From: Candidatus Methanimicrococcus labiotermitis
GTDB taxonomy: Archaea > Halobacteriota > Methanosarcinia > Methanosarcinales > Methanosarcinaceae
Reading direction: 5' to 3'
Assembly (NCBI GenBank): GCA_009784005.1
Contig: WRCE01000003.1
Span: forward strand, 10,519 to 74,518
DNA: 64,000 nucleotides
Each line of letters opens with the position of its first letter. The stretch's first letter is position 1. The position numbers and the translations under genes were made by a program. Below, piece after piece: positions 11,586-58,622 of the stretch. The notes under the pieces were generated by a model that saw only the letters and a program-made list of their open reading frames with translations, had not been told where the DNA came from and ran no database searches.

Positions 11586-11624
11586 AAGGAAAAAACAACG
11601 GCAAAAACAGCAAACTTGAAAGAT

Positions 11625-12896
11625 TTATCTGACGTTTGTCAGCTTCCCGTCCTTGGATAAAACAACAACGCGGCTCGGCTCGGATTCGCCGGCGTATTGA
11701 TATCCGGCAAAGGACGCGATGTCATTCGCAAACGCCCGAATCTCTTCTTGTTCCGCCATGTTGGCGCGCGCCAGGCGCAGTCTTGAAAAGCCCACGTGCA
11801 TGTAGGATTTGACTTCAACGAAATCGGGCGCCGCGATTTTTATCAGTTCGGCAAGTCCGGGCGCGTCTGCCATGTTTAAGCCTTTGACAGCGGTCACCCG
11901 AATGACTGTCCTGACGCCTTCTGATTTCTTTTCTTTGAGAACCGCCAGGGACTCATTCACTTTTTCCCAAAGGTTTTTGCTTTTCGGGCGGCAAACGTTA
12001 TCATACATTTCAGGCGTGGACGCGTCTAAACTCATGTAAAGCTGAGTCGGTTTGATTTGACGAAGCATGTCGGGATTCGTTCCGTTGGTGACAAGAAAAA
12101 CCGTCATGCCGGCTTTTTCAAATTCCGTGACCAACTCAGGCAGCCGCGGATAAAAAGTCGGCTCGCCGGAAAGAGATATGGCGACGTTGGACGGGTTGAC
12201 GGCTTCTTCGTAGTGGCCGGGAACCGCGTTTTTTGACCCGCCGAAGCCGGTAATCAATTTTCGCTGGGCTTTGACACTCTCCCTCACAATCGTTTCCGGG
12301 TCGTCCCACGAATCGGGAATACCCGCTTCGACTTCCGTCGGGCGCCAGCAAAAAACGCATGCCTGATTACACATCAGGGTCGGCGTCATCTGAAGGCAGC
12401 GATGGGACGTCACGCCGTAAAAAGAAGATTTGTAACAAACGCCCGTGCCGTTCATTGAATTTTTCAGCCACGAGCATGTTTTAACGGCGGAATGGGCGCC
12501 GGCTTTCGCGTAACCCTGACGGCGCATCAGCTCGTCAATCGAAATGTCTTCGGGAGAATAATGAAAACGGCTTCTTTCTTCGGAAGGGGTGGGAGGAGAG
12601 GAGCCTTTAATCAGGCCCTCGGCTGAATCCCGAGTGGAATCGCAAGAGGAATCGCAAGGGGAATCGCGGGTGGAATCACAGGCGGAATCGCAGGCGGAAT
12701 CACAGGCGGAATCACAGGCGGAATCGCGGGTGGAATCGCAGGTGGAATCGCGAGCGGAATCACGGGTGGAATCACGAGTGGAATCACGGGCGGAATCACG
12801 AGTGGAATCTCGGATTGAACCTTCTCTTTTTTCACAATCAGTGACCGGTTTTTTTTCATTCATTTTTGTGACCCGAAATAAAAATACGATTCGCAA
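11625..12896 (-). CDS. taw1: tRNA 4-demethylwyosine synthase (TYW1/Taw1, radical SAM) with a repeat-encoded N-terminal extension
   Basis: Radical-SAM CX3CX2C (MCNQACVFCWR), an upstream Cys cluster (KTCSWLK...GVCYK), SLSGEPT, and FLVTNGT. The N-terminus carries (DSTRDSA)n repeats. Confidence 0.85.
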   Translation of the reverse strand: MRIVFLFRVTKMNEKKPVTDCEKREGSIRDSTRDSARDSTRDSTRDSARDSTCDSTRDSACDSACDSACDSACDSTRDSPCDSSCDSTRDSAEGLIKGSSPPTPSEERSRFHYSPEDISIDELMRRQGYAKAGAHSAVKTCSWLKNSMNGTGVCYKSSFYGVTSHRCLQMTPTLMCNQACVFCWRPTEVEAGIPDSWDDPETIVRESVKAQRKLITGFGGSKNAVPGHYEEAVNPSNVAISLSGEPTFYPRLPELVTEFEKAGMTVFLVTNGTNPDMLRQIKPTQLYMSLDASTPEMYDNVCRPKSKNLWEKVNESLAVLKEKKSEGVRTVIRVTAVKGLNMADAPGLAELIKIAAPDFVEVKSYMHVGFSRLRLARANMAEQEEIRAFANDIASFAGYQYAGESEPSRVVVLSKDGKLTNVR

Positions 12897-12920
12897 TGTA
12901 ACTTAAACAATTTGATTAAC

Positions 12921-13072
12921 AATGCCTTAAACGATACCTTAAACGATGCCTTAAACAATGCCTTAAACAATGCCTTAACGATGCCTTAAACGATGCCTAA
13001 ACAATGCTTTAAACAATACTTTAAACGATGTCTTAAACGATGCAGCTTAAACGATGCAGCTTAAACGATGTA
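12921..13072. repeat. Intergenic minisatellite, ~12-bp unit (GCCTTAAACGAT)
   Basis: About 12 copies upstream of taw1, reaching the 3' end of the 390-aa ORF. Confidence 0.85.
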
Positions 13073-14589: not shown

Positions 14590-15205
14590 AGAGAATGTAC
14601 TGATAATATTGATGAGAATAAGTTGTGAGCCGCATTTTCGTCTTTCGTCCGCTTCGCTCCCGAAATCCGAAATTGCGGTCGTACTTGAACTTTTCGAAGA
14701 ATAACAAAAAATGAAACACCCCTTTCTTCTGAAAATAAGAAAAATGAACGCCCCTTTTCCCGAAACTTATCTTTCAGGTTTTTAAAAAACGGCGTTCGGG
14801 TTTGAATAAAATCAACGAAAATCGGTGTTTCATTTTTTATTCTCTTTTAACCCCTAAAACCGACCGTTCATTACGAATTCCGGTCTGAGCGCAGCGAAGA
14901 ACGGAATCGGAATGAACGGCTATTATCATTATTTGCTGATGCTGATGTTGATACTGATGCAGGTTTGTTATCTGTCTATTTTCAGCCTATTGTCTGTCTA
15001 TTTTCAGTTAATATTGATGATGATATTGATGATGATATTGATGATGATATTGATGATGATATTGATGATGATATTGATGATGATATTGATGATATTATTG
15101 ATGATAATATTGATGAAAATAAGTTGTGCGCCGCATTTTCGTCTTTCGTCCGCTTCGCTACCGAAATCCGAAATTGCGGTCGTACTTGAACTTTTCAATG
15201 AATAA
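14590..15205 (+). repeat. Family-1 composite structured repeat (M1-M3-M2-microsatellite-M1)
   Basis: Same modules as locus 1. Here the variable core is (TGATGATATTGA)n at about 15005-15110. Confidence 0.85.
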
Positions 15206-15312
15206 TAAAAATGAAACTAATCGAAAAAACAGTAAACAAAAATGAAACTAATCAAAAAAACAGTGAGCAAAAGGAAAAAAGAAAAAAGGACAAGAACTTG
15301 CCCTTTCGAATT

Positions 15313-21040: not shown

Positions 21041-22133
21041 AAACCAGAATGCCCACTACAAACCCGAGAATTGCGCCCGTATTCAAAAACGGCAAACCCG
21101 CTTGCGGTTTCCCTTTAGAGACCACATACATCAAGAGGGCAAAGCCGAAAAACGTCCCGACCATTGTGAAAAGAGCGGGCACGCCAATCCATCCGTCGTG
21201 CGGCAAAAAATGATTGGCCGAAATCACTAAAAGCGTTGGGATAACGGCGTCGCCGAGACCCATAAAAAGCGCATCGGACTTCTTTTCATTAATTTCTTTC
21301 TCAACTTTCGCAATACCGGTCAGTTCCCCAGAACCGGCAGCATCGGCAACATTTTCAGTAACGCTACCGGCAGCATTTCCGGCGGCTGTTTCGTTGACAG
21401 ATGCCGATTCGGCGGCCGATTCGGCGCCGCCGGAAAGCCCGCCATCATCGTTGGAAAGCCCGCCGCCATCGTTGGAAATCTCATCGTCATCGGAAAAATC
21501 TTCTTTGATGTAAGAATAGTTCCATTTTTTCGGGATCACAAAAAGGATCGGCAGTTTCAAATTCATCATGCCGTTGGCAAGCGTCAGCATATGCTTTGTC
21601 TTGTAAACGGAAATAAAATCATAGATGAGAAGACCAACCATCAAAACGATGATCGGCACATAAGAGAGAGAAACGCCGATAACGGCGCAGGAGCCGATTG
21701 CGATCAGCAGGCCGGCGATGTCGATAATGTACCACTCGGGATATTTGTACAGCAAAATTGTCAAAGCGACGGCCCCGACAAACGACACGCCCAATGTGAA
21801 ATAGGTGTAGCCGGCGGCTTTATCGAGAATCGCGAGAAAAATAAAGAACAGCATCGAACAAATGAAAAAGTAAATAACCGCTCGAATGATCGCCGTCTTA
21901 TTCTTTTTAATCATATAAACCATGACGGCCGAGAAGATCAACAGGACAATGATGTAATAAATGGAATAGCCGATGCTTTCCGGATTATCAGGCGTCTGGG
22001 AAGTGATATACTCCGTCTCTGACAACCAAAGGGCGCCGACTTGGACAATGAGAACAAAAACGGCCATAATGAAATAAGGCATAAATTCTTTCGTTTTTGA
22101 AAATAAGGAAACAGATACGTTATTTGTGTTCAA
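21006..22133 (-). CDS. Presenilin / signal-peptide-peptidase-like intramembrane aspartyl protease (A22 family)
   Basis: Polytopic membrane protein with the YD (LLIYDFISVY), GLGD (FMGLGDAVIP) and PAL (GVPALFTMVG) motifs. A repeat-encoded acidic/Gly loop sits between the two catalytic motifs. Confidence 0.75.
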   Translation of the reverse strand: MNTNNVSVSLFSKTKEFMPYFIMAVFVLIVQVGALWLSETEYITSQTPDNPESIGYSIYYIIVLLIFSAVMVYMIKKNKTAIIRAVIYFFICSMLFFIFLAILDKAAGYTYFTLGVSFVGAVALTILLYKYPEWYIIDIAGLLIAIGSCAVIGVSLSYVPIIVLMVGLLIYDFISVYKTKHMLTLANGMMNLKLPILFVIPKKWNYSYIKEDFSDDDEISNDGGGLSNDDGGLSGGAESAAESASVNETAAGNAAGSVTENVADAAGSGELTGIAKVEKEINEKKSDALFMGLGDAVIPTLLVISANHFLPHDGWIGVPALFTMVGTFFGFALLMYVVSKGKPQAGLPFLNTGAILGFVVGILVSGTAVTFSIGF

Positions 22134-22149
22134 AAAAATACCTCTTCAT

Positions 22150-22510
22150 ACACGTTATTAATATTCGTTATTCGTTACGCGACATTCATTGCGCGTTAAT
22201 TACGACACGTTATTCATTGCGCATCGTTGTTGCGCATTATTTATATCCGTTATTTATTGCGCGTTATCCACTGCGCGTTATCCACTGCGCGTTATCCACT
22301 GCGCGTTATCCACTGCGCGTTATCCACTGCGCGTTATCCACTGCGCGTTATCCACTGCGCGTTATTTATTGCACGTTATTCATAATTCGTTATTCATAAT
22401 TCGTTATTCATCACGCGTCATTCGTTGCGTATTATTTATTACCCGTTATTCATGACGCGTTATTTATCACGCGTTATTCATTACACATTATTCATTACAC
22501 GTTATCATAC
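22150..22510. repeat. Intergenic minisatellite, 14-bp unit (GCGCGTTATCCACT); 7 perfect copies at about 22259-22356 with degenerate flanks
   Basis: Read directly between the presenilin-like gene and truA. Confidence 0.88.
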
Positions 22511-23567: not shown

Positions 23568-24797
23568 TTAAAGAATCCGAACATCCAAGCAAATATTAGA
23601 TTGATGCGGCGCATAAGAACGAACCACTCTTTTTTCGACAACCTCAATCGAGCGCCCTTTCTTTTCAGCCGCTGCGCGAATCAGTTCAACCGACCCGTCA
23701 AACAAATCGTCATCCGAAGTCATGGCATAACAATGAATCACGCCGCCCGGTTTACAGATGGCAACAGCCGTATCCAAGAAATCAAACGCGTTGTGAGGCA
23801 GATTCATTATGACATGGTCGGCGGCGTTTGGATATTTTTCAGACAGGAAGAGAGCGTCTTCGTTCAGCGCCGTGACGTTGGATACTTTATTCAAAGCGAT
23901 ATTTTCACGTAGCATTGCGACCGCGTCTTCGTTTTTATCGTTCGCGATAACGCAAGACGGCGATGCAAATTTAGCAAACAGGATACTGTAGGGGCCAACG
24001 CCCGCAAACATGTCAATAACGACATCGCCGTCCCGAATCTGCCCCAATATGCGGTGACGCTCGGTGGAAAGGCGGGGCGTGAAATAAGCGCGCGCCAAAT
24101 CAACATGATACCGACAGCCGTACTCCTTGTGGATGGTGGCCGTTTTGTCTTCGCCCTTCACAAAAACAAGCGGCCGTGTTCTGAATTCGCCGGAAATGCT
24201 GCCGGCGGAAAGCAAAACGGTTTTGATGGCGGAATGCGCTGTTAAAATCGCGTCGGCGACATCGGAAACATTAAAAGAGGGAACAGAGGGAACGGAAGGG
24301 ACAGAGGGAACGGAAGGGACAGAGGGAACGGAAGGGACAGAGGGAACGGAAGGAACAGAGGGAACAGGTACTTTCAGGTTTTCGTCGCCGGAAATTTTTT
24401 CGTCAATAACGGCAATGTCGCCGATGATTTCGTAAGCGACCGAATAGCCCAGAATTTCACTGACCGTCGGCACTTTCTTTTGGACTTGAAACGAAACGCA
24501 TTGCAAGTACCAGCTGTGAAATTCCACTTTCTTTTTCGGGTGCGGCAAAAGTGAAATAAGCGGCATGAGACTGTCCCTGAGGACAAGGCGCTCTTCTTTT
24601 TCCGGATACCGAACCAAAGGTAAATAGAGGTAAATGTCGTCGGCAAATGGTTTGCAAGAGTGATCGATCAGATCATACTCATCCAGCAAACGGCGAACGG
24701 GTTCTCCGTTTCCCTTGTGGGTGCGAAAGGACGTGCGTAAAACACAATCGGGATTGCCTGTGTGTTCGTTTTCTGTTGAATCAGACTTTTGTATCAT
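23568..24797 (-). CDS. trm5: tRNA (guanine37-N1)-methyltransferase Trm5 family, with an internal (PSV)n repeat insertion
   Basis: SAM-binding motif VIDMFAGVGPYS plus NDKN....L..N and VIMNLPH. Ten PSV repeats are encoded at about 24275-24365. Confidence 0.8.
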   Translation of the reverse strand: MIQKSDSTENEHTGNPDCVLRTSFRTHKGNGEPVRRLLDEYDLIDHSCKPFADDIYLYLPLVRYPEKEERLVLRDSLMPLISLLPHPKKKVEFHSWYLQCVSFQVQKKVPTVSEILGYSVAYEIIGDIAVIDEKISGDENLKVPVPSVPSVPSVPSVPSVPSVPSVPSVPSVPSFNVSDVADAILTAHSAIKTVLLSAGSISGEFRTRPLVFVKGEDKTATIHKEYGCRYHVDLARAYFTPRLSTERHRILGQIRDGDVVIDMFAGVGPYSILFAKFASPSCVIANDKNEDAVAMLRENIALNKVSNVTALNEDALFLSEKYPNAADHVIMNLPHNAFDFLDTAVAICKPGGVIHCYAMTSDDDLFDGSVELIRAAAEKKGRSIEVVEKRVVRSYAPHQSNICLDVRIL

Positions 24798-27148: not shown

Positions 27149-27190
27149 TTTTTATCCTTCCGTTCATTCTTAATTATGGAATGTAATTTA

Positions 27191-27294
27191 GCAGAGTGTC
27201 AGTCAGCAAAGTGTCAGTCAGCAAAGTGTCAGTCAGCAAAGTGTCAGTCAGCAAAGTGTCAGTCAGCAAAGTGTCAGTCAGCAAAACGGTATCC
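27191..27294. repeat. Intergenic minisatellite, 15-bp unit (CAGCAAAGTGTCAGT), about 6.5 copies
   Basis: Read directly between mtnA and radB. Confidence 0.88.
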
Positions 27295-28509: not shown

Positions 28510-28547
28510 TTGATGCATTGATGCCGAATCTCTGTTTATTGATTCGG

Positions 28548-28690
28548 TTTTCCGTTTTTGAGTCAGATTATCCGTTTTTGAGTCAGGTTATCCTTTTTTG
28601 AGTCAGGTTATCCTTTTTTGAGTCAGGTCATCCTCTTTGAATCCGGCCATCCACTTTAATCAGGCCATCCTCTTTGAATCAGGCCGCTCT
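28548..28690. repeat. Intergenic minisatellite, ~21-bp unit (GAGTCAGGTTATCCTTTTTTT)
   Basis: Read directly downstream of the RecJ-like gene, next to its stop codon at 28698. Confidence 0.8.
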
Positions 28691-31947: not shown

Positions 31948-32110
31948 CTCATTCTTTTTTTTCACCCATTTTTTAATTCACTCATTCTTTTTTTCCACCC
32001 ATTTTTTAATTCACTCATTCTTTTTTCCACCCATTTTTTTATTCACTCATTATTTTTTTCACCCATTTTTTAATTCACTCATTATTTTTTCACTCGGTTT
32101 TTAATTCCAA
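31948..32110. repeat. Intergenic minisatellite, ~32-bp unit (CACCCATTTTTTAATTCACTCATTCTTTTTTT), about 5 copies
   Basis: Read directly downstream of purB. Confidence 0.85.
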
Positions 32111-32434
32111 CGGGATTTTTTTCTTGCATGACTGTCATTCAGATGGCTATATATATTTACATGACTTTAATTTGAATGGATGTAATTTGAATCGTTTGAA
32201 CTCCGGGACATACGATTTTAAATCAAAATCCAAGTATATTTAATAGATTTTATATCGATTTTTCATTAATAATTACCTTTATTAATAAGAAGATTTTATT
32301 GATTATTGTCTCTTTCTGAGAGACTTTGATGAATAATGTTTTTTCGGATTTCCAATTCATTTCAAAAAGAAATGCAAATCTGCAAATAAGAAATTAAATG
32401 AAAATCAGACATTAAATCGAAAACAAGTGATACG

Positions 32435-33148
32435 ATGACAGAAGAATATTGCGATTGCTGGGAATACGAAAAACCGATTTCCCTTCCTCTGATCGGCGAT
32501 GAAGCGCCTGCTTTTGAAGCTCAGACAACAAATGGTATGATGAAATTCCCTGAAGAATACAAAGGGAAATGGGTTATTCTTTTCAGCCACCCCGCTGACT
32601 TCACACCTGTCTGTACAACCGAATTTATCACATTCGCGACCATGCAGGCCGAGTTCGAAAAATTAAACACTGAACTCATCGGCCTTTCCATCGACAGCAT
32701 CTTCGCGCACGTCGCTTGGTTAAAAGAAATCAAAGACAATATTGAATACAAAGGCCTCAAGAACGTTGATATCAAGTTCCCCGTGATTGCCGACATCAAA
32801 ATGGAAGTCGCCAAAAAATACGGTATGCTTCAACCCAACGCTTCCGACACGAAAGCGATTCGCGCTGTTTTCATCATCAACCCCGAATCAGTTATCAAAG
32901 CCATCCTTTACTACCCTCTGTCTGCCGGCAGAAACATGCAGGAAATTAAGAGATTATTGCTCGCCCTTCAGTTGAACGCCAAAGAAGGCGTGGCAACGCC
33001 TGCCAACTGGCAGCCCGGAGATGATGTCATTCTCGGCGCGCCTGAAACCTTCAAAGACGCGAAAACAAGAGACAGCTGGAAATCCGATGGCGATAAAACC
33101 ATCCACTCTTGGTTCCTTGTTACTAAAAAGACCAAAAAGAGCAAATAA
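32435..33148 (+). CDS. Peroxiredoxin (Prx6/1-Cys-like)
   Basis: Active site FSHPADFTPVCTTEF. Downstream HVAWL and FIIDP-like (FIINPES) motifs. Confidence 0.9.
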   Translation: MTEEYCDCWEYEKPISLPLIGDEAPAFEAQTTNGMMKFPEEYKGKWVILFSHPADFTPVCTTEFITFATMQAEFEKLNTELIGLSIDSIFAHVAWLKEIKDNIEYKGLKNVDIKFPVIADIKMEVAKKYGMLQPNASDTKAIRAVFIINPESVIKAILYYPLSAGRNMQEIKRLLLALQLNAKEGVATPANWQPGDDVILGAPETFKDAKTRDSWKSDGDKTIHSWFLVTKKTKKSK

Positions 33149-33224
33149 TTCAAATGACGCGGCAATTGAGTATGAGTATTCGTACTCAATTGCATATTTT
33201 AACTCCATAAACACGACGTAACGA

Positions 33225-33415
33225 CAAAACGTACCAACCTTTATTTAAAAACGAACACAAAACGTACCAAAAAACGTTCCAAAAATCGTTCCAAAAATCG
33301 TTCCAAAAAACGTTCCAAAAAACGTTCCAAAAACGTTCCAAAAACGTTCCAAAAACGTACCAACAAAACGTATCAACGAAACGTTCCAACCTTTATTTAA
33401 AAACGAACACAAACC
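33225..33415. repeat. Minisatellite (CGTTCCAAAAA)n bracketed by a ~30-bp direct repeat (CCAACCTTTATTTAAAAACGAACACAAA)
   Basis: Read directly downstream of the peroxiredoxin gene. Confidence 0.8.
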
Positions 33416-33439
33416 CTTCAAAAACGAACGCGAAAGACG

Positions 33440-34660
33440 GTAAAATTGCCGGCTTTTCCTTTTTCCGATTTGATTGTGAAAATAGAAGAGCCCTATTTTA
33501 TTTCACCCGAATGGCTGACGGGCGTAGCCTTTTTCGGTTCATCACACCTCAGATTTATGCACTGTATGAATGCTTTGGCATTCAGTGCATAATTTATCCC
33601 ACCACAAAACAAAAACACACACAACCACAAATCCGTATCAGAAAAAATGACACGGTAAAAGCCGGCAATTTTTGCCGGCAATCCCTATTTTGAATCAGAA
33701 CATGAAAAAACGAATCATTTTTTGATTTAACAAAAAATACACAAGCGGAGCCGTTTTTGGCCCATCGCGTTTATGCGCCGCATGATTGCTTTGTCATCCG
33801 GTGCATAGATTACTCCAACATCCATACACACAAAAACACACACAAAACACAAACAAAACACAAACCGTGTCAAGAAAAATGACACGGAAAAAGCCGGCAA
33901 TTTTTGTCGGCTTATCTCCATTTTGAATCAAATCATGAAAAAACGAATCATTTTTTGATTTAACCAAAAATACACAATCGGAACCATTTTTGGTCTATCA
34001 CGATTATGCACTGAATGAATTCTTTGTCATCCGGTGCATAATAACCCCACCACAAAAACGAAACACACACAAAAACACACACAAAACGTAAATCCGTGTC
34101 AGAAAAAAATGACACGGTAAAAGCCGGCAATTTTTGCCGGCAATCCCTATTTTGAATCAAATCATGACATAAACGAATCATTTTTTGATTTAACCAAAAT
34201 GACGAACGGAACCGTTTTTGGTCCATCACGTTTATGCACCGTGCGAATGCTTTGGCATTCGGTGCATAATTTATCCACCACACACAAAACACACACAAAA
34301 ACACACGCATGAAAAAAATCCGTGTCAGTAAAATGGCACGGAAAAAGCCGGCAATTTTTGCCGGCTAATCCCTATTTTGAATCAAATCATGACAAAACGA
34401 ATCATTTTTTGATTTAACCAAGAATGACGGACTGAACCGTTTTTTGATTTAACCGAAAATGACGGACGGAGTCGTTTTTTGATTTAACCAAGAATGACGG
34501 ACGGAGTCGTTTTTTGGCCCATCACGTTTATGCACCGCATGAATGCTGTCATCCGGCGCATAATTTTCTCCACCATACACACAAAACACACACATGAAAA
34601 AATCCGTTTCAGAAAAATGACGCGGTAATAGCCGGCAATTTTTGCCGGCTAATCTCTTTT
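33440..34660. repeat. Family-2 tandem array: five units of about 216-284 bp, each with the same set of hairpins and a CA-rich tract
   Basis: The anchor AGCCGGCAATTTTTGCCGGC recurs near 33660, 33892, 34131, 34347 and 34631. Each unit also has CCGTGTCA-N7-TGACACGG and TATGCACCG(TGC)GAATGC-TTTG-GCATTCGGTGCATA hairpins and a (CACACAAAA)n tract. Confidence 0.85.
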
Positions 34661-34671
34661 TTTAAATCAGA

Positions 34672-34860
34672 TTCTGAAGGCTCAGAAGATCCCGAAGGCT
34701 CAGAAGATCCCGAAGGCTCAGAAGATCCCAAAGGCTCAGAAGATCCCAAAGGCTCAGAAGATTCCAAGGCTCAGAAGGCCCCAAAGGCTCAGAAGGTCCT
34801 AAAGGCTCAGAAGATCCCAAAAGCTCAGAAGATCCCAAAAGCTCAGAAGACCCCGAAAGT
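34672..34860. repeat. Minisatellite, 18-bp unit (GAAGGCTCAGAAGATCCC), about 10 copies, abutting the 3' end of the kinase-like membrane gene
   Basis: Read directly. It yields the spurious LGSSELLGSSE ORF. Confidence 0.88.
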
Positions 34861-35517
34861 TTCAAAAATAAACAGCATGGCAACCATTAATACGCCGAAA
34901 ACAATCGGAATCAGAAGGTTGTCATCCACTCGAATTTGCTTGCTGTAAATTTCAGAAACGGCTGTCACCGGAATGGAAGCAATCGCTGCCAAAATGAAAG
35001 GGGCGTCCAATTTCAAAACAACGGCGAAGCCCGCTAAAAAAAGATAGGAAACGCCGATAAAGGCGAGCGTTCCTTCAACCGATTTTCCGTTCTTGAATTT
35101 ATGTTTCCCAAAGCGCATGCCGATGAGCGCAGCGAAAGCGTCCCCGAAAATCAAAATAGTAATGCCGAGCATAGCAACATATTTCGGGAAGAGAAGAACG
35201 GATAAAAAACAGCCGAGCAAGAACCAGTTGGAACTGATATAGCCGTATTTTTCATTGTCGCGCAAGATGAAAGAGAAATATTTGACTTTGATGTCATTCA
35301 AAAACTTGAGTTTTGAATACAAAAGCAAAGAATTGCAGGCGAAAAGAAGAATCAAAGCAATGCCGATAACAAGACATGCCGCCGTCCTGTCGGTAAAATA
35401 AATGAAAACAACGATTAAAAACGCAAGCATATGAAGGATTTTCCGGGAAACCTCATTTCTGTATTTTTTTCCGGAAGCCGCCTTCTCATTTTGGGATGAA
35501 TTTTGAATGCCGGTCAT
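34843..35517 (-). CDS. Polyprenol/dolichol kinase-like membrane protein (CdsA-related CTP-transferase superfamily)
   Basis: Polytopic protein. SRKILHMLAF... and FGDAFAALIGMRFGKHKF..GKSVEGTLAF match this family. Confidence 0.6.
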   Translation of the reverse strand: MTGIQNSSQNEKAASGKKYRNEVSRKILHMLAFLIVVFIYFTDRTAACLVIGIALILLFACNSLLLYSKLKFLNDIKVKYFSFILRDNEKYGYISSNWFLLGCFLSVLLFPKYVAMLGITILIFGDAFAALIGMRFGKHKFKNGKSVEGTLAFIGVSYLFLAGFAVVLKLDAPFILAAIASIPVTAVSEIYSKQIRVDDNLLIPIVFGVLMVAMLFIFETFGVF

Positions 35518-35574: not shown

Positions 35575-35860
35575 TCAAGAACAGGACACGGAGATATATC
35601 GGTTTGAGAACAAGACACAGAGAAATTTTGGCAAGACAAACAAGAACAAGAAATTTTTGACTCAGGGCAAACAGGGCATAAGAAATTTTGGACTCAGGAA
35701 AAACATGACGCCGAAAATTTTGGCTCAAGACAAACATGACACCGAAAATTTTGGCTCAAGACAGACAAGGCACCGAAAATTTGCCACAGGACAAACAGGG
35801 CACAAGACAAACGAGCCGCAAAAATTTTTTGCCTCAAGAAAAACGGACCCAAAAAACCAA
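35575..35860. repeat. Intergenic minisatellite, ~36-bp unit (GACAAACATGACACCGAAAATTTTGGCTCAA), about 7 degenerate copies
   Basis: Read directly upstream of the kinase-like membrane gene. Confidence 0.8.
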
Positions 35861-38120: not shown

Positions 38121-38274
38121 TTTCAAAAACAGCAACAAAACGTATGTTATTTCCGCCGCCTTTGGTCGACAACAAATTAATTGTTTCGGCTGAAGGCGGT
38201 TTTTTTATTTCCTTTCGTTTATTTTCGTTACATCGTTTTTTCCTTTTGTTTCTGTTTTTTCCTTTTTTTTGATG

Positions 38275-39003
38275 AATAAAAGAGTGTTTCATTTTTGTTA
38301 TTCTTTGAAAAGTTCAAGTACGACCGCAATTTCGGATTTCGGTAGCGAAGCGGACGAAAGACGAAAATGCGGCGCGCGACCTATTTTTATCAATATTATC
38401 AACATCCTTCTTCTCATCAGTACAGATTAACAATAAATCGACAACTGCATCGGACAATAAACCGGCAACAGCATCAGCACCAGCATCAGCAAATAATGAT
38501 AATAGCCGTTCATTCCGATTCCGTTCTTCGCTGCGCTCAGACCGGAATTCGTAATGAACGGTCGGTTTTAGGGGCTAAAAGAGAAGAAAAAATGAAACAC
38601 CAATTCATTCGTTTTATTCAAACCCGAACGCCGCTTTTTTAAAACCTGAAAGATAAGTTTCGGGAAAAGGGGCGTTCCCTTTTCTTATTTTTTGAAGAAA
38701 GGGGTGTTTCATTTTTTTTATTCATCGAAAGTTCAAGTACGACCGCAATTTCGGATATCGGGAGTGAAGCGGACGAAAGACGAAAATGCGGCGCACGACC
38801 TATTTTTATCAATATTATCAGCATCCTTCGTTCCATTAGTACAGATTGGCAATAAACCGGCAACAAGAAGAAAAAATGAAACACCAATTCATTCGTTTTA
38901 TTCAAAATCAGAACGCCGCTTTTTTAAAACCTGAAAGATAAGTTTCGGGAAAAGGGGCGTTCCCTTTTCTTATTTTTCTAAGAAGGGGGTGTTTCATTTT
39001 TCT
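38275..39003 (-). repeat. Family-1 composite structured repeat, inverted orientation (M1-core-M2-M3-M1-M3)
   Basis: Reverse complements of M1 (about 38301-38390 and 38722-38805), M2 (about 38480-38580) and M3 (about 38585-38710 and 38870-39000). Confidence 0.85.
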
Positions 39004-39147
39004 CAGTTATTTTGCCGCGTCCTTTGAGGGCGCCGGATTGATGCGGATGACAGATACTTGAAGCTGATGACAGATGCTGAAAACCTTCGTAAAATAATCT
39101 TAAATATAATAACTGCCTTTAATGGCAAAAGTTCAAGGAACATTTTT

Positions 39148-40332: not shown

Positions 40333-40592
40333 ATTCTTAACGGCTTGAATATCAGTCTTAACGACTATTGTCAGTCTAAACGGCTTATTGTCAGCCTTAA
40401 CGGCTGTTGTCAGTCTAAACGACTATTGTCAGCCCCTTACAGCTTAAATCAGTCCCTAAACGGCTTGATTATCGGTCATCCCCTAACATCTTAATTATCA
40501 GTCCCTAAACGACATAATTTATCAGTCCCTAAACGACATAATTTATCAGTCCCTAAACGGCATAATTTATCAGTCCCTAAACGGCTTAATAT
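40333..40592. repeat. Intergenic minisatellites, ~21-24-bp units (TGTCAGTCTAAACGRCTAT; ATCAGTCCCTAAACGACATAATTT)
   Basis: Read directly downstream of purP. Confidence 0.85.
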
Positions 40593-44854: not shown

Positions 44855-45058
44855 AGACAGATACGAACAGAAAAAGAGACAAACGGAAATAAGAGGCAAA
44901 CGGAAATAAGAGGCAAACGGAAATAAGAGGCAAACGGAAAAAGAGACAAACGGAAATAAGAGACGAACAGAAAAAGAGACAAACGGAAAAAGAGACAAAC
45001 GGAAAAAGAGACGAACGGAAAAAGAGATAACCGAGAAAGAGAGATAACCGAGAAAGAG
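44855..45058. repeat. Intergenic minisatellite, ~18-bp unit (AAGAGRCAAACGGAAATA)
   Basis: About 11 copies upstream of the CobW-like gene. Confidence 0.85.
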
Positions 45059-45065
45059 GTGTTTC

Positions 45066-46241
45066 ATGAAAGTTTTCATTATTGGCGGTTTTTTGGGCAG
45101 CGGAAAAACAACAACGGTTTTGAAGCTGATTAAAAAAATGGCGGCGGACAATAAACGCGCGGCATTGATTGTAAATGAAGTCGGCGAAATCGGGATTGAC
45201 GGCAGCGCGCTGGAAGTCGCGGGAATACCGTCCAAAGAAATCACAAACGGCTGCATCTGCTGTTCTTTGATTTACAGCCTGAGAGTAACGGTTTCGGAGT
45301 TAGCGGACATTTACAAGCCCGATATTTTAATTGTGGAGCCGACCGGGCTGTCTTTTCCGAGTCAAATACGGGACGAACTTCTCAGAATCAACGTGATGAT
45401 GTCGTTTGCGCCAATCATTACGCTTGTCGATGTGTCTCGGTTTACGTCGGAAATGAATCAAATTCCCAAATTCGTGGAACAGCAATTAAAAGAAGCGGAT
45501 ATCATCGGAATTAACAAAACGGATTTGGCAGACGAAGAAAAAATCCAAGCCGTTGAAACTTTTTTGAAAGAAATGAATCCCGATGCCTATCAAATTCGGA
45601 TGTCGGCGAGAGAGAACGAATCGGTTGATAAGCTGTACCGGCTGATGATGGCAGAAGGCGAAACCGTTTTCAACCCAATCGACGCAGGCGGCGCCGAAGC
45701 GCGTTCAATAGTGACGGAGAAGGCAAATTCGATAGAAGTGTCAAATATCAGCGCCTATTCGGGATTATATCACGCTCACGCCCAAGGAGGACAAGGCAAA
45801 CAGGAGGGGCAAGGAAGACAGGAGGGACAAGGAAGTCAGGAGGGGCAAGGAAGACAGGAGGGACAAGGAGGACTCACCGTCAAAGACGCCGGCGCCCTTT
45901 TGGAACAAATTGTAACGACTGCAGGCATTGAGATTGCGAAATTGAACTCGTCATTTGTCGGGCACATCAAAATGGCCGTGAAGGTCGATGATACGCTCAT
46001 TAAGGTCAGCCAAACGGCGGGGCCTGACGACAGACAGATTGAAGCGGAATATATCCTTCAGGAAAAAATTGAAAACAACGGCGAATACGAACTGCGGTAT
46101 TTGTCGGCTGTGACAAACGTTAAAAAAGCGGCTTTAGAGGAAATCGCGAATAACGCGATAAGCGCAGCTTTGACGGCGAAAAATTTGACGTTTAAAAAAC
46201 AAGCTTCAGAAGGGGATTTGAAAAAACCGATTCTTCTTTGA
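45066..46241 (+). CDS. CobW/G3E-family GTPase (metallochaperone-like) with an internal (QEGQGR)n repeat
   Basis: P-loop GGFLGSGKTT, the GCICCS motif, and INKTD (NKxD). The repeat is encoded at about 45783-45875. Confidence 0.8.
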   Translation: MKVFIIGGFLGSGKTTTVLKLIKKMAADNKRAALIVNEVGEIGIDGSALEVAGIPSKEITNGCICCSLIYSLRVTVSELADIYKPDILIVEPTGLSFPSQIRDELLRINVMMSFAPIITLVDVSRFTSEMNQIPKFVEQQLKEADIIGINKTDLADEEKIQAVETFLKEMNPDAYQIRMSARENESVDKLYRLMMAEGETVFNPIDAGGAEARSIVTEKANSIEVSNISAYSGLYHAHAQGGQGKQEGQGRQEGQGSQEGQGRQEGQGGLTVKDAGALLEQIVTTAGIEIAKLNSSFVGHIKMAVKVDDTLIKVSQTAGPDDRQIEAEYILQEKIENNGEYELRYLSAVTNVKKAALEEIANNAISAALTAKNLTFKKQASEGDLKKPILL

Positions 46242-49790: not shown

Positions 49791-50080
49791 GTTACTAAAC
49801 CTCTTATTTTATAGGAATTTATAAGATGTAATTGAATACCGAGTTATATATTTACTCTTATGTAACCTGAATTAGATTAATACTTTCGCCATGCAAGATC
49901 TAGAATTAAATTCAAAGACATTATTAAAATACGATAGAAGTTGTTCCATTACCTGATTTTTTTACCTCGACAAGAATTTATATTTAATAATTCTTCTATT
50001 CTTGTATTGTGCGTTCAAACGTGCTAAGCGATTGAGGTGCGGGAATTAGAAAGGAATACGAGAAACGGATTTCGATTCAA

Positions 50081-51334
50081 ATGGATTCAGAATGGTTGAC
50101 TCCCAAAGAAGCCGGAGTTAAATGGGGAATAAAAACGAGGCGCGTACAAGCACTTTGCTTAAAGGGGCAAATAAACGGTGCGGTTCGCATAGATCGATTT
50201 TGGTTAATTCCTAAAAACACTCCAAAACCCATTGATAGTCGAACGAAAATCAAAAAGCAATTACATAGTCAAGTGAATGAAATTGATACAGTCAAAGATA
50301 ATAATAAACCACGATTAATTTCATTATTCTCTGGTTGCGGTGGTCTTGACCTTGGTTTTGAAAAGGCGGGATTTGAGAGAGTGTGGGCTAATGACTTTGA
50401 TTCAGATGCACAAGCTGTTTATACCCGTAATCTTGGTAAAATAGATGGGCGGGATATATTAAGCGTAGATGAAGACGATATTCCTGAAGGGGATATATTA
50501 ACAGCTGGATTTCCCTGTCAACCATTTTCTAATGCTGGGAACCGTAAAGGTGTTCATGATTCTAGGGGTATGCTATACAAGGAATGCCTTCGAATTATTG
50601 AAAGTAAAATGCCAAAGGTTATTGTATTTGAAAATGTAAAAGGATTATTGTCAACAAAATATATTGATGGGCGCAACTTGGTTGACGTCATTAATGAAGA
50701 TTTGTCAACAATTGGAGGCGTGGGTTACAATGTTGTTCATAAACTTCTAAACGCTGCTGACTACGGCGTTCCACAAAACAGGCAAAGAGTTTTTTTTGTT
50801 GGGATAAAAAAAGATTTAAAAATTAATTTTGTTTTTCCCGAAAAGCAAATAAAAAATAATTTGACAATTCGGAATGTTCTGGAAATGCCCAAAGATTTAC
50901 CCAATCAAATTGATTGGGGGTTGTCACCCCAAGCACTTGAAATGATTGAATACATACCAGAGGGTGGTTCTTGGAAAGATATTCCTTATGAGCAATTAGC
51001 GCCTCGTTTTCAACGAATAAGAGATGATATGAAGAAATATCGCTCGCCTAATTTTTATAGACGTTTTTCGCGTGATGAAATTAACGGAACAATTACAGCA
51101 TCGGCTCAACCCGAAAACTGTGGTATTATCCACCCGACCGAAAATCGCCGTTATACGATTCGTGAAATTGCTCGAATACAAACTTTTCCAGATGATTTCC
51201 TATTTATTGATGACACACCAAAAAACATTACAGCAATGTATAAAGTCATTGGAAATGCCGTGCCCGTAATCCTAGCTCAGAATATAGCCTCTTCGATTAT
51301 GGAACAAGTTTTCAAAGGAGAACAGGCATGTTAA
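50081..51334 (+). CDS. DNA (cytosine-5)-methyltransferase with an N-terminal helix-turn-helix (excisionase/MerR-like) domain
   Basis: C5-MTase motifs I LFSGCGGLDLGF, IV GFPCQPFS, VI FENVKGL, VIII QNRQRVFFVG and X IGNAVP. The N-terminal ~50 aa (WLTPKEAGVKWGIKTRRVQALCLKGQI) look like an HTH. Confidence 0.9.
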   Translation: MDSEWLTPKEAGVKWGIKTRRVQALCLKGQINGAVRIDRFWLIPKNTPKPIDSRTKIKKQLHSQVNEIDTVKDNNKPRLISLFSGCGGLDLGFEKAGFERVWANDFDSDAQAVYTRNLGKIDGRDILSVDEDDIPEGDILTAGFPCQPFSNAGNRKGVHDSRGMLYKECLRIIESKMPKVIVFENVKGLLSTKYIDGRNLVDVINEDLSTIGGVGYNVVHKLLNAADYGVPQNRQRVFFVGIKKDLKINFVFPEKQIKNNLTIRNVLEMPKDLPNQIDWGLSPQALEMIEYIPEGGSWKDIPYEQLAPRFQRIRDDMKKYRSPNFYRRFSRDEINGTITASAQPENCGIIHPTENRRYTIREIARIQTFPDDFLFIDDTPKNITAMYKVIGNAVPVILAQNIASSIMEQVFKGEQAC

Positions 51335-52896
51335 TGAATACCGATAAAGCATATCTTTTTGGTTTGATAATCGGTGGTGGGATTTGGCGAAACAACGAAG
51401 ACGGATTCATAATCCACCTCCCGTATAGGAAATGGGGTTCATATGACCAGAATCCCAGACGTGCCTCTCAAATATCAGGAGACATTGTACAATTTTTAAA
51501 CCCATTGTTTAGAAACATTTACGGCCTCAATATTTCTTTTGATGGAACTGCTCGCGGTGATTGGAATATTTTGTTTGAGGGAGATTTGACAGAGTTGAAA
51601 TCCGATTTGCAGTCATACGGTATTGAATGCGAAGGCGAATTGCGTAGTACTGCAAGTATTGGTGGGATAATTGCTGATTTATTTGATGAAAATATGAAAC
51701 GGAGATTTATTGCAGGACTTGCCGATACCATAGGTAGCACAAATAAAAACCACCGGCGATTTTCAGCTGAAATCCAAACTTTATCGTTTGAGTTAAAAGG
51801 CTTTAATTTCTCATTCGTTTGTGAGTTGTGCCGCCTTTTGTATAGTGTAAACTGTTTACCCGATCAAATTCTGTGGAACCATCCCAACTTCCAATCAGCA
51901 AGTGACTCTTACTATACGAAATGGAATAAAGGTACCAAACTCCGCATCCAACTTGATCAATATGCTAAATTCGGAGCGTTTGCTTTCAAAACAAAGGCGG
52001 AATCATCTATCGAAAATCGTAGCTTGCAGCAACAAACGCATAGTGCAGTTTCGTGCCCCGAACGCGAAATTCGAGCGAAAACTTCCTGCTTTCATCCCGG
52101 AGAGAATGATAAAAGGTTGCCTGATTGCATCCGTGGAGGACATTATCTCCATAATCGCCATGTCTGTGCTGTTATGGGATGTGAAAATGCACCATATGAT
52201 ACTATTAGAGGCTTATTTTCAAATGTTGGAGATTTAATTATTCCTTTCCCAATATTGTGTAAAAATACAATACAGAAAATAGAAGAAATAATTAAAGAAG
52301 AGCCGTTGCTTGCTAATCGAGAGTATTCTATTGCAAACGTTAGTGTAAAATCATTATACGAACTTTATAAAGCAGACCATAACGCATTATTATTTGGAAA
52401 CAATGCTAATAATGGGTACCCTATTGCCAAAATAATCCAAGGCATATCTTATGTGATTGCTGATGAAAATGAATTAAATGGCGCACGCCCCAAAGGCAAC
52501 TTTGAAAAGATTGTAGAACATCGCATACATCATGAAATGAATAATAAATACCCAAATATTCTTTCTAGGTTTGAAGTTCAAGAGTCAAATTTTATTATTG
52601 CTGAAAATACTGAAGGAGTTTCCTATACAGTAAATGCTGATGAGCTAAATAAACACCCTAAAAATAAATCACTGATAGACTTAGGGCGTGATTTGTCTAC
52701 CGCCACTGGCCTTATGGTCGAATTCCGTAAACCTGATTTGTTAACACCTTTAGTAATCACTGGAAATGGTCGAGGTGTATTGATTGGTGCGCATAACCCG
52801 AGTGTTTATGAAAAACTTGTTACGATTGCCCCGGATAATGAATATAAATTGTGTGTCCGCCCAATAACTGAAGGAGATTTGCGTAATGCGAAATGA
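51328..52896 (+). CDS. Hypothetical 522-aa protein with two degenerate LAGLIDADG-like motifs; candidate nuclease or specificity partner of the upstream methyltransferase
   Basis: KAYLFGLIIGGG (aa ~7-18) and RRFIAGLADTIGS (aa ~124-136) resemble LAGLIDADG motifs at roughly the spacing expected of a double-motif LAGLIDADG enzyme. The gene overlaps both neighbours (7 nt and 11 nt). The functional assignment is tentative. Confidence 0.45.
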   Translation: MLMNTDKAYLFGLIIGGGIWRNNEDGFIIHLPYRKWGSYDQNPRRASQISGDIVQFLNPLFRNIYGLNISFDGTARGDWNILFEGDLTELKSDLQSYGIECEGELRSTASIGGIIADLFDENMKRRFIAGLADTIGSTNKNHRRFSAEIQTLSFELKGFNFSFVCELCRLLYSVNCLPDQILWNHPNFQSASDSYYTKWNKGTKLRIQLDQYAKFGAFAFKTKAESSIENRSLQQQTHSAVSCPEREIRAKTSCFHPGENDKRLPDCIRGGHYLHNRHVCAVMGCENAPYDTIRGLFSNVGDLIIPFPILCKNTIQKIEEIIKEEPLLANREYSIANVSVKSLYELYKADHNALLFGNNANNGYPIAKIIQGISYVIADENELNGARPKGNFEKIVEHRIHHEMNNKYPNILSRFEVQESNFIIAENTEGVSYTVNADELNKHPKNKSLIDLGRDLSTATGLMVEFRKPDLLTPLVITGNGRGVLIGAHNPSVYEKLVTIAPDNEYKLCVRPITEGDLRNAK

Positions 52897-53458
52897 AGTA
52901 TCCTATTACCCAGAGATACAGACTTTTATCGAAGCGCAATTAAGAAGCAATTTTTTGGCGAGTAACCGCCGCGAATTGTATGTATATTGGGGAATCGGCG
53001 AATTGAAAAACAATCTCCAACGTATCATTATCGAGCACCCCGACAAATGTGCTTGCGTTTCAAAATTCGCAGAGCGTGTTCCACCGTTAAGTCTTGATAT
53101 ATTTGCTCTGATTACAGATGGGATAAAATTCGAACTTTTGATTTTAGAGATCAAACTTTTGAATGCCGTAGGGTTGAAAGAATGGTCACAACTTGTGGGA
53201 TATTGTTTTGTATCAGGTTCAAAATATGGGTTGCTTGTCAATATCAACAACGGGGCCAGTCCACGCTTAACTCAATTATTGCATACTGAACATCATATAT
53301 CTCACATACAGACAATAGTTAATAGTGAGCCTTGTGAACATATGCTTGGATTCATGCAATGGAATGACCTTACCCAAAATTTTGAATATAGCAATTTCGG
53401 TTTTATTAAATCGTTATCGGAATTAAGTGATAGACTCGCAGCCGAATTTTCAAAATAA
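52886..53458 (+). CDS. PD-(D/E)XK-like nuclease-fold protein (candidate restriction endonuclease subunit)
   Basis: PPLSLDIFALITDG...FELLILEIKLL gives a D...ExK arrangement followed by ...SQLVGY. It is the last gene of the operon. Confidence 0.5.
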   Translation: MRNEVSYYPEIQTFIEAQLRSNFLASNRRELYVYWGIGELKNNLQRIIIEHPDKCACVSKFAERVPPLSLDIFALITDGIKFELLILEIKLLNAVGLKEWSQLVGYCFVSGSKYGLLVNINNGASPRLTQLLHTEHHISHIQTIVNSEPCEHMLGFMQWNDLTQNFEYSNFGFIKSLSELSDRLAAEFSK

Positions 53459-53749
53459 ATTCAGCAAATAAAAACATTTATTAAACGTGACAAACGAACC
53501 TAATACCACATAAAAAAAGAAAACGTAATGGAAAATCCCTCTTATCTTCAATCAAGAAGTGCATAATTTCATGACTCCATTTGCATTTGGAATTATGGTG
53601 ACAATGAGTTTTGTTTACTAAACGAGAATATAAAAAGATCATTGAAAGTGGCACCCAATTCTCATTATTAATGAAAAAATATTTCTAATATTATAAGAAA
53701 AATGGATACAATTCAATGAATATATTATATCGGTTGGATTCATTATAAT

Positions 53750-54670
53750 TTAACTGATTTTTTTAACTTCTGATTCGAGTTTCTCAAGATTCTTCTTATG
53801 TTTCCGAATATTTTCTCTTATTTCTTTGCATTTCTCAGAATTAAAACTAACATTCTTTTTTTTATTTTTGAAGTATTCAATGCCATTTTCATTGCATAAA
53901 ACAGAATGAGCGAAAATATTTCGAGGTATTATAATTTCATTATGATATTCCCTTGAAAAATCATCCAGATCTAACTGATTTAATATTTCACCAATTGCTA
54001 AAGATTGTTGATATGACGAAAAGAGAAGAGGATCGGCCATCAAATCATCAATCGAACATTCGAGTTTGCACTTTTCAAAATATTTGGACTTGGACCTGAG
54101 ATGAGTGGCAATTTCATCAAATATTTTTTTTGATAATTGTTCTGTATCTAACTCAGCGCATTTTGTACATGAATTGATGATTTCAAAAGCCGCAGCGTCT
54201 AATGAGCTGGTTTCATGCATAATCATACCGCGCATGGCAATTATATGCTGAAATTTTTGAATTGTCAAATCAATAAGTTTAATAATTTCATTATAAACTG
54301 ACTTATGATGAGTTTCAGAAGAGAATTTGGAAGTTTCTAAAAATGTGCTACGATTAATTTGACCAATATCCCTTAATTTTTTTGCAGTATAGAATAAAAT
54401 TTCTGTGGAAATGTTTGATTGGCGAATAAGTTGAATTATTTGATCACCGTTTTTTCCTGTGGATTCATCCTCCACTAGATTATAGTCTATAAGCATGAGA
54501 TCAAAATCCTCATTTAGGGATCGCTCAAAATCGTCAGAATTTGAAATTGAGATAATGGATGGTTCAAATCCATGATTAGATAAATGCACTTTTACTTTTT
54601 CAAGCCAGTCATCATCAATAAAATCATTAATACGATCATCTAACCATAGAATGTTATACCTTAGTTTCAT
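53750..54670 (-). CDS. Receiver (CheY-like REC) domain protein with a C-terminal HEPN-like domain (RNIFAH motif)
   Basis: REC features: acidic pocket ILWLDD, phospho-acceptor candidate D62 in DLMLIDYNL, and T95 in LFYTAKK. The C-terminal half is all-alpha and carries Rx4H as R250-N-I-F-A-H255 (complement 53906..53923). It overlaps the kinase gene by 4 nt. Confidence 0.6.
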   Translation of the reverse strand: MKLRYNILWLDDRINDFIDDDWLEKVKVHLSNHGFEPSIISISNSDDFERSLNEDFDLMLIDYNLVEDESTGKNGDQIIQLIRQSNISTEILFYTAKKLRDIGQINRSTFLETSKFSSETHHKSVYNEIIKLIDLTIQKFQHIIAMRGMIMHETSSLDAAAFEIINSCTKCAELDTEQLSKKIFDEIATHLRSKSKYFEKCKLECSIDDLMADPLLFSSYQQSLAIGEILNQLDLDDFSREYHNEIIIPRNIFAHSVLCNENGIEYFKNKKKNVSFNSEKCKEIRENIRKHKKNLEKLESEVKKIS

Positions 54671-58531: not shown

Positions 58532-58622
58532 ATGACTATAATAAGTATGGGAAGAATAAAAAGATACCGGTAAGGACTATTTCTGAAAAATATAAAAAAG
58601 AAAAAGTAACGGGAAATCCCCA

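Follow-up and report, generated by a model that had tools for sequence, protein, structure and literature searches.

Introduction

Among the described systems that are closest to the locus analyzed here, the Borg elements of Methanoperedens contain pervasive tandem direct repeats, for which slippage and possible non-coding-RNA roles have been discussed, and a "few archaeal genomes" are also rich in tandem repeats (Schoelmerich et al., 2023, PMC9879509). In bacteria, genes for small RNAs (sRNAs) can form tandem arrays, for example NsiR1 of Nostoc, an RNA of about 60 nt that is encoded in 12 tandem copies with a promoter each (PMC9045159). Archaeal transcription termination relies on T/U-tracts, with aCPSF1 cooperating, and not on hairpins (PMC8716108); some archaeal 3′ ends are nevertheless associated with hairpins, consecutive terminators are known, and M. 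mazei shows folding potential upstream of termination sites (PMC7237163). Here we describe a tandem array of five imperfect units of about 230 bp in a stretch of 64,000 nt from Candidatus Methanimicrococcus labiotermitis (contig WRCE01000003.1, positions 10,519 to 74,518, forward strand; termed the window throughout). The array lies between a peroxiredoxin (Prx) gene and a convergent gene for a membrane protein. We consider it probable, although far from certain, that the array is a lineage-specific tandem amplification of a convergent-gene 3′-end or terminator module in an array-prone genome, the role in termination being a prediction.

The arrays of the window resemble the Borg repeats in several respects. 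They are head-to-tail, species-specific, turn over rapidly and fill many spacers; some begin within the ends of genes, one strand is A-rich, and an origin by slippage or recombination is proposed. The periods of the genic repeats are all divisible by 3, and the host is a member of the Methanosarcinales sensu lato. Thus, many unrelated, species-specific arrays with genic periods divisible by 3 are present, whereas the perfect, recent, short units of Borgs are not. In contrast to a Borg, the window is part of a chromosome with housekeeping genes rather than of an extrachromosomal element; the copies of the array are imperfect (78–88% identity), and other arrays of the window often show only 63–90% matches. 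In addition, the unit of about 230 bp is composite, far longer than typical Borg units, and traceable to a conserved, functional module that existed before.

The similarities to the other systems are more limited. As for archaeal terminators (PMC7237163, PMC8716108), a hairpin (hairpin B below) followed by T7–T9 lies behind a gene in six relatives, T-tracts succeed one another, and the site is situated between convergent genes; however, here five to six full copies occur in tandem, the internal copies lack an adjacent T7 on the plus strand, and termination is predicted. With NsiR1 the array shares outer copies that are more diverged than the inner ones. NsiR1, however, has a defined promoter motif and demonstrated transcripts, whereas the units described here have no recognizable promoter and only putative transcripts, are four times longer, and belong to the domain Archaea with a different transcription machinery. 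Bacterial repetitive extragenic palindromes (REP) and bacterial interspersed mosaic elements (BIME) are likewise clustered, imperfect palindromes at convergent gene 3′ ends that are sometimes in tandem, but REP sequences are dispersed in hundreds of copies per genome, whereas the family of the window is confined to one locus.

Structure of the array

The initial annotation had described five head-to-tail units of about 230 bp between positions 33440 and 34660, and Tandem Repeats Finder (TRF), nhmmer and word counts all recovered them there. TRF reported a period of 233 with 3.7 copies, 83% matches and a score of 1109 (33609-34444), and an nhmmer profile of the unit matched 33611-33839, 33844-34069 and 34071-34296 with E values of about 1e-71 and found partial copies on both flanks. 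The register of the annotation was corrected: in the ancestral reading, five modules (m1 to m5, 33555-34676, pairwise identity 78–88%) are preceded by m0, a decayed founder copy (33162-33554) directly behind the Prx stop codon. For further searches, a covariance model (R1) was built from the five units with the helices A, C and B. The array comprises the following features, with hairpins A to E as described below:

33162..33554, plus strand: m0, decayed founder copy (inverted repeat; partial nhmmer match 33418-33609, E 2e-21; weak covariance-model match 33160-33256; comparison of the closest relative, L004, and the units)
33259..33389, no strand: 12-bp array (AAAACGTTCCAA), 11 copies, found by TRF, nested in the C/A tract of m0, polymorphic between assemblies
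33555..33770, plus strand: m1, with A at 33555-33592, CA tract, C at 33633-33655 (one A.C mismatch), B at 33661-33679, D/E part; R1 score 171.9 bits
33771..34003, plus strand: m2, with A at 33771-33807 (G.U wobble, inner stem broken), long CA tract, C at 33865-33887, B at 33893-33911 (G.U wobble), D/E part
34004..34231, plus strand: m3, with A at 34004-34041 (U.G wobble, inner stem broken), CA tract, C at 34094-34117, B at 34123-34141, D/E part
34232..34527, plus strand: m4, with A at 34232-34269 (perfect, inner stem GAATGC/GCATTC), CA tract, C at 34320-34341 (U.G wobble), B at 34347-34365, expanded D/E part
34528..34676, plus strand: m5, truncated last copy, with A at 34528-34563 (one A.C mismatch), CA tract, C at 34604-34625 (decaying), B at 34631-34649, then TAATCTC and T7 on the plus strand

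The lengths of the complete units are 216, 233, 228 and 296 bp (the range is given as 215–296 bp) and are not multiples of 3. A coding function was rejected on this basis and because the open reading frames (ORFs) of the units are short and unit-specific, none being conserved. The founder copy m0 contains a hairpin A′ (33162-33193), ATATTTTAACTCC, a C/A-rich tract with the 12-bp array, and a degenerate D/E part; of hairpin B, only the 3′ half is present (TTGCCGGC at 33447).

An independent metagenome contig, L084 (ENA ERZ27257304), is identical across the whole 230-bp array; therefore, the array is not an assembly artefact. The sole difference between the two spacers is one unit of the neighboring 12-bp repeat. 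In a third contig, L085, the array has four differences, all at non-stem positions, so that a strain-level test of covariation was impossible with these contigs. Within the spacer, near-identical strains differ solely in the (AAAACGTTCCAA)n array, which is one unit shorter in L084 and has several units and a 22-bp flank rearranged in L085. Because the strain differences are confined to it, (AAAACGTTCCAA)n turns over much faster than the 230-bp units.

Hairpins and nested repeats

An inverted-repeat scan recovered the listed stems, so that the earlier description of the units as strings of hairpins stands. The arms of hairpin A, TTATGCAC...GTGCATAA, are found at 33555, 33771, 34004, 34232 and 34528, and hairpin C, CCGTGTCA-N6-8-TGACACGG, at 33633, 33865, 34094, 34320 and 34604. 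Hairpin B, GCCGGCAA-TTT-TTGCCGGC, occurs five times in the array; the word GCCGGCAATTTTTGCCGGC starts at 33661, 33893 (one mismatch), 34123, 34347 and 34631 and has nine matches over both strands, versus 0.07 expected. The AATCAAA/TTTGATT stems were confirmed by the same scan, and the CA-rich tracts are also present. A single unit folds about 5 standard deviations better than shuffled sequence on either strand (z −4.9 on the minus strand), the two strands folding similarly because the elements are palindromes.

Two elements required revision. The bulged stem with the inner helix GAATGC/GCATTC, which had been described for each unit, is perfect in m1 and m4 only; the variants in m2, m3 and m5 (GATTGC, GAATTC and GTCATCC) break the inner helix. 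Hairpins D and E form by A/U-rich pairing of adjacent copies of a 35-bp sub-repeat (TTTTTTGATTTAACCAAGAATGACGGACGGAGTCG); two to three such copies, diverged from one another, make up the D/E part of each unit. The sub-repeat shares homology with a 32-bp array of 6.7 copies at the same spot in L004 and has re-expanded to 3.2 copies in m4 (34405-34516). The internal triplication reported for the last unit is therefore present, but it sits in the fourth module, the fifth being truncated. Altogether, the copies contain nested repeats of 12, about 11, and 35 bp. Hairpin C has no counterpart in L004 in the covariance-model alignment and therefore arose in the lineage of the window.

Two further structural candidates were rejected: a CRISPR, as the whole unit is repeated and there are no unique spacers, and, on inspection, a kink-turn or C/D-box reading of the bulged hairpin A, which has no tandem G.A pairs and no CUGA partner.

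A single-copy module behind the Prx gene of related species

The Prx protein has 89% identity to that of L004, a Methanimicrococcus metagenome-assembled genome, and 81–83% to those of M. stummii, M. hongohii, M. blatticola, M. hacksteinii and "M. odontotermitis". ADSL, Prx, the convergent membrane gene and SSF follow one another as they do in the Methanimicrococcus relatives, and the window also contains the SepRS gene among further housekeeping genes of archaeal type. The host is thus a methanogen within the Archaea and belongs to the genus Methanimicrococcus. The array is flanked by the following two genes:

32435..33148, plus strand: 1-Cys/AhpC-TSA-type Prx gene, 3′ end toward the array (Pfam AhpC-TSA, 5.6e-33, and 1-cysPrx_C; NCBIfam PRK13189, 2e-91)
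34843..35517, minus strand: ORF for a conserved multi-pass membrane protein of 224 aa, convergent with Prx and syntenic in L004-L010

The membrane protein had been labeled "kinase-like", a label that finds no support, as the protein has no family match in Pfam, NCBIfam or PDB.

In L004, the closest relative, the parts of the module are present once, in the same convergent spacer, in the order TTATGCAATTTGAATGCCTTTGCATTTTAATGCATA (hairpin A), TTTAACTCC, a C/A-rich stretch, GCCGGCATTTTTGCCGGC (hairpin B), T7, and the 32-bp array of 6.7 copies. The nhmmer unit profile matches L004 at 3410-3483 (E 6e-6), and R1 matches it over its full length at 3316-3451 (41.8 bits, E 2.7e-6, or 5.8e-9 locally), with helices A and B kept and C absent. 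Weak R1 matches in L006 (950-1073), L008 (6724-6859) and L009 (6713-6861) overlap the region of the Prx-downstream module. At the same place, L006, L008 and L010 have TTTATGCA-loop-TGCATGAAA, (A/T)TCTCC, AACACACACAA...AAATCTAAAC, and a longer GCCGGAT...ATCCGGC hairpin followed by T7, and the CA tract, hairpin B and T7–T9 are retained in L007 and L009. In all six relatives (L004 and L006 to L010), hairpin B is a GC-rich stem of 7–13 bp directly behind the Prx gene, of the form GCCGG...CCGGC in L006 to L010, and it is followed by T7–T9 on the plus strand, that is, in the sense of Prx. The sequence of its inner stem varies by species while complementarity is kept (AATCAAA/TTTGATT, TAATCA/TGATTG, AACCGT/ACGGTT), and plus-strand G.U pairs are needed twice in hairpin B of L007 and once in hairpin A of L006, L008 and L010. 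In the comparison in related genomes that the initial annotation had recommended, hairpin B covaries between species; among the units, covariation is not above chance.

The distance from the Prx stop codon to the start of the module is 14–17 nt in the window and in L004 and 24–50 nt in L006, L008 and L010, and no T5 tract intervenes. The elements of the module persist even between clades with about 54% identity at third codon positions, where synonymous sites are near saturation. For this reason, the module is functional in some way, and the comparison identifies the ancestral object as a single-copy, plus-sense 3′-end module of the Prx gene. The divergence of the units (12–22%) is slightly below the divergence from L004 at third codon positions (25%), which places the amplification around or after the split from L004. 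In L008, the contig of M. blatticola DSM 13328, a long poly(A) or A-rich stretch of low complexity begins about 300 bp past the Prx terminator (6990-7128, contig start), and the contig ends there; because of this, the spacer also appears to be unstable or unassemblable in the type strain.

Word, profile and covariance-model searches found no copies of the unit outside 33.1-34.7 kb in the window. A 22-mer of hairpin B had three unrelated single matches in 185k species genomes, a 20-mer had eight unrelated single matches in JGI metagenomes without similarity past the hairpin, and two unit words gave one match in IMG/VR, a chance match in an AT-rich phage coding region. Three Methanimicrococcus-clade assemblies carry the hairpin A pattern, each a single time and solely at the Prx locus. 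A dispersed or mobile element (REP/BIME, or a miniature inverted-repeat transposable element) was rejected on the basis of these distributions, within the 64-kb window and the assemblies and databases searched. Our literature search found no description of repeats in Methanimicrococcus.

Strand signals and the favored explanation

Because the host is archaeal, the logic of sigma-70 promoters and Rho-independent terminators is the wrong frame for this locus, and a bacterial scan for sigma-70 promoters and intrinsic terminators was used only to locate hairpin and T-run sites. On the plus strand, the segment from A to B (120–140 nt) has no T-run of at least 5 nt except for the T5 in the loop of hairpin B, and it has two to three A-runs of at least 5 nt, which are T-runs on the minus strand. 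The D/E segment, in turn, has two to four T5–T6 runs on the plus strand and, in m3 to m5, none on the minus strand. This asymmetry fits what would be expected if the unit represents a whole convergent spacer, with the 3′ untranslated region (3′UTR) half of the plus-strand gene, a half facing the minus-strand gene, and hairpin B between them.

A T-run 0–2 nt downstream of the hairpin on the sense strand is present in the single-copy orthologues (T7–T9, plus strand). The 3′ end of m5 (GCCGGC-TAATCTC-T7, plus strand) is of the ancestral type, although the T7 lies 7 nt past the GCCGGC stem, and a terminator-like site was called there on the plus strand (34629-34651). No such plus-strand T-run adjoins the hairpin in m1 to m4; on the minus strand, T4–T5 follows, and only m4 passed the scan. 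The earlier description of a GC-rich hairpin followed by a minus-strand T-run is thus right in that the hairpin is a genuinely conserved element of the terminator type, but the minus-strand run is only T4–T5 and absent in m5. The proposed orientation was reversed, as the orthologous hairpin of the six relatives has its T-run on the plus strand.

Under the favored explanation, tandem amplification of a 3′-end module, hairpin A (TTATGCA...TGCATAA) would have come first in the ancestral plus-strand order, then a brief A/T stretch with TCC at its end, an unstructured C/A-rich tract, hairpin B and T7, followed by a T-tract-rich repeat of about 35 bp facing the membrane-protein gene. Copies would have arisen by out-of-register recombination or replication slippage, which the palindromes and (CA)n tracts may have favored, and the same genome-wide process would have filled the other spacers. 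The amplification would then not have been built as a device, and its present role would be that of its parts. From the plus-strand T5–T6 tracts after the A-to-B segments and the minus-strand T4–T7 after B and C, the 1.2 kb would act as an iterated bidirectional transcription stop and as a buffer of 3′-end hairpins between the convergent genes. Transcripts of Prx probably end already in m0, at T5 tracts near 33465-33535.

Several observations weigh against this explanation. In m1 to m4, the plus-strand T-tract after hairpin B has shrunk to T4 and lies 8–9 nt away, and an A4–5 run upstream of B creates a hairpin followed by T4–5 on the minus strand; judged by these features, the internal copies no longer resemble the ancestral plus-strand terminator. 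Furthermore, the stems A (outer part), B and C are less variable than the remaining positions (9 of 50 versus 38 of 82 variable columns, Fisher p 0.0013; p = 0.018 without the ambiguous CA tract), and hairpin B is intact in five of five copies despite 12–22% overall divergence. These values hint, with moderate strength, at selection on individual copies, and selection on redundant terminators past the first functional stop would not obviously be expected. It is mainly because the stems are less variable that we keep a sizeable probability on functional readings.

The reduced variability of the stems relative to the non-stem columns would also be expected if each unit encoded an RNA of about 100–120 nt in the sense of Prx, with a C/A-rich, single-stranded 5′ part (CUCC/CCACC) and the hairpins C and B, that starts at a weak TATA-like TTTATGCA in the 5′ arm of A and ends at the T-tracts after B. 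In the relatives, the module would then be a 3′UTR-derived or independent sRNA gene, and the array would be a dosage amplification, as for NsiR1. Among TATA-like words, only TTTATGCA recurs in the units ahead of the T-run-free stretch. It is found in four of the five units (ATTATGCA in m3) and in L006, L008 and L010 (CTTATGCA in L004), a conservation beyond what the stem needs. However, it has two mismatches to the methanogen TATA consensus, no A-rich TFB recognition element (BRE) lies directly upstream in the units, and it lies 23 to 40 nt from the TCC/CA tract, depending on the species. A scan for archaeal TATA words found no recurrent good TATA box in the units, a result to be read with the poor calibration of the scan, which, of 29 protein genes, assigned an upstream box with no more than one mismatch to only 8. 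The absence of T-runs of at least 5 nt between A and B, bar the loop of B, the persistence of the module near synonymous saturation, the bacterial tandem sRNA gene arrays (PMC9045159) and the proposal that intergenic tandem repeats of Borgs are non-coding RNAs (PMC9879509) are all consistent with such sRNAs. Against them, the module follows closely behind the Prx stop codon without an intervening T5, which makes a 3′UTR the simplest reading in the relatives. Overall, an array of plus-strand sRNA genes, the chief alternative, seems unlikely to us, although it deserves to be kept in view, and we are a shade more doubtful still of the specific proposal that the Prx-downstream module is a regulatory sRNA, 3′UTR-derived or independent, with a C/A-rich CUCC/CCACC seed and terminal hairpins, that was amplified to a battery of five to six genes.

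The initial annotation had instead proposed sRNAs on the minus strand; these would span the E and D hairpins and end at B with U4–5, with C and U5–7 as a backup. In m1 to m4, hairpin B is indeed directly followed by T4–T5 on that strand, and hairpin C has T5–T7 in it or after it; in addition, the D/E segment of m3 to m5 is free of minus-strand T-runs of at least 5 nt, and folding is as good on the minus as on the plus strand. However, the orthologous hairpin in the six species has GGGGT or CGTTAT in place of a minus-strand T-run, m5 also lacks one, and the minus strand has no recurrent TATA-like word. In a minus-strand RNA, most of the stem wobbles would turn into A.C mismatches, and D and E are pairings between neighboring sub-repeat copies. 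Transcription from this strand into sRNAs is quite improbable.

Tests of structural conservation

In the unit alignment, 92.9% of the cells pair. Covariation among the five units is not above chance, with 263 of 500 column shuffles scoring as high; only one of the 31 pairs has a double change, and pairing in the inner helix of hairpin A is 73%. The "compensating-looking" changes noted earlier are uncompensated, as the variants break the inner stem of A, and they represent decay. Single-sided stem changes yield five G.U pairs on the plus strand versus two on the minus strand, a bias that would favor a plus-strand RNA but is not significant. The covariation of hairpin B between species fits a terminator and an sRNA equally well.

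A covariance-model search of Rfam, as the initial annotation had suggested, gave no match at the gathering threshold in the window; the best sub-threshold matches reached about half of the threshold and were unrelated (EBV sisRNA, rseX). The orthologous module of L006 likewise matched no family. The lack of above-chance covariation and of an Rfam family also speaks against the plus-strand sRNAs. A scan for tRNAs and tmRNAs found none.

The palindromes might, alternatively, act at the DNA level, as sites for a dimeric DNA-binding protein of the nucleoid or segregation type or as part of an origin-like region. The symmetry of the palindromes, which makes the two strands look alike, is compatible with such a role, as are the outer arms of hairpin A (TTATGCAC/GTGCATAA), which are conserved as sequence, one change in m1 that is symmetric on both arms, and the genes for GAN (RecJ/Cdc45-like) and RadB 4–6 kb away. 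However, the spacing of the hairpin A arms varies from 7 to 21 bp between species, which fits a hairpin rather than a fixed dimer site, and G.U-type asymmetries are tolerated. The locus lies between two convergent 3′ ends of housekeeping genes, with no promoter to regulate, and is single-copy in relatives. No orc1/cdc6 gene was found among 36 ORFs scanned across the window, and the cumulative GC skew does not switch at 33-35 kb, so that the origin-like array proposed earlier did not hold up. To our knowledge, the units are unlike origin recognition boxes (ORB), a point that we regard only as a lead. A DNA-level function is thus very improbable, the least probable of the alternatives.

Other arrays and features of the window

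Tandem repeats are frequent throughout the window. After merging, 48 arrays account for 9.3% of the bases; 21 of the 28 spacers longer than 50 bp carry at least one array, and 27% of the spacer bases are in arrays. Examples are found at 9391-9546, 12918-13070, 22166-22505, 27190-27285, 28535-28685, 31948-32123, 35609-35807, 40335-40590, 44859-45044 and 63533-63639. The units of these arrays are mutually unrelated, and the same spacer contains other arrays in relatives, whose array content is 0–7%. Many of the intergenic arrays have periods that are not divisible by 3, whereas all genic periods are. Next to the 230-bp units, one further array extends to the membrane-protein gene:

34677..34859, no strand: 18-bp array (AAGGCTCAGAAGATCCCA), 10 copies, found by TRF; begins in the last codons of the membrane-protein gene, the rest is non-coding

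In this array, the frame of the membrane-protein gene meets stop codons in every unit, and another frame encodes (GSSEPL/S)n. The 32-bp array of L004, which is different, likewise overlaps the end of the orthologous gene.

Genic repeats are located at 1557-1994, 4311-4386, 12621-12813, 21403-21492, 24276-24367, 45785-45873 and 55451-55728, in ORFs for Rrp4-like, Dph2, TYW1-like radical SAM, signal-peptide peptidase, Trm5/TYW2, CobW-like and HATPase proteins. Their periods of 9, 12, 18, 21, 24, 27, 33, 36, 42, 54 and 126 result in in-frame amino-acid repeats in housekeeping proteins.

A dispersed intergenic family of about 450–700 bp, unrelated to the 230-bp units, is present at 10650-11600, 14590-15217 and 38253-39014 (inverted), with 79–92% identity. 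Contig L084 (15800-17470), which is otherwise 99.6–100% identical, joins position ~38715 of the window to ~11093 in reverse, which implies that about 27.6 kb (11.1-38.7 kb) are inverted compared with the window. The breakpoints lie within the inverted copies of the dispersed repeat, and the inversion reflects either a true polymorphism between strains or a misjoin in one of the assemblies.

The region 50000-58600 is an island of low GC content (0.33–0.38, versus about 0.45 elsewhere). It contains genes for two C5 cytosine DNA methylases (50081-51334 and 57317-58531), a protein of 885 aa with HATPase_c_3 and HATPase_c domains (54667-57324), and four ORFs without a Pfam match, and it looks like a horizontally acquired restriction-modification or defense island.

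Implications

By itself, an imperfect tandem duplication in an intergenic spacer is an ordinary object. Tracing the unit to a genus-conserved 3′-end module offers a rare clean view of the birth of a composite "satellite" in an archaeal chromosome, in which a founder copy was amplified, nested 12-bp, 35-bp and CA-type sub-repeats formed, and hairpin C was gained on the way. If the units are expressed, they would be the first archaeal tandem sRNA gene array, and a pervasive tandem-repeat process of Methanosarcinales-type genomes would have created a dosage of functional RNA genes. The Borg-like pattern of the chromosome may be more interesting than any single array: most of its spacers are filled with species-specific arrays, a pattern that has so far been highlighted mainly for Borg elements. 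This genome may therefore be tractable for asking what drives the formation of tandem repeats in archaea, and whether the arrays are transcribed.

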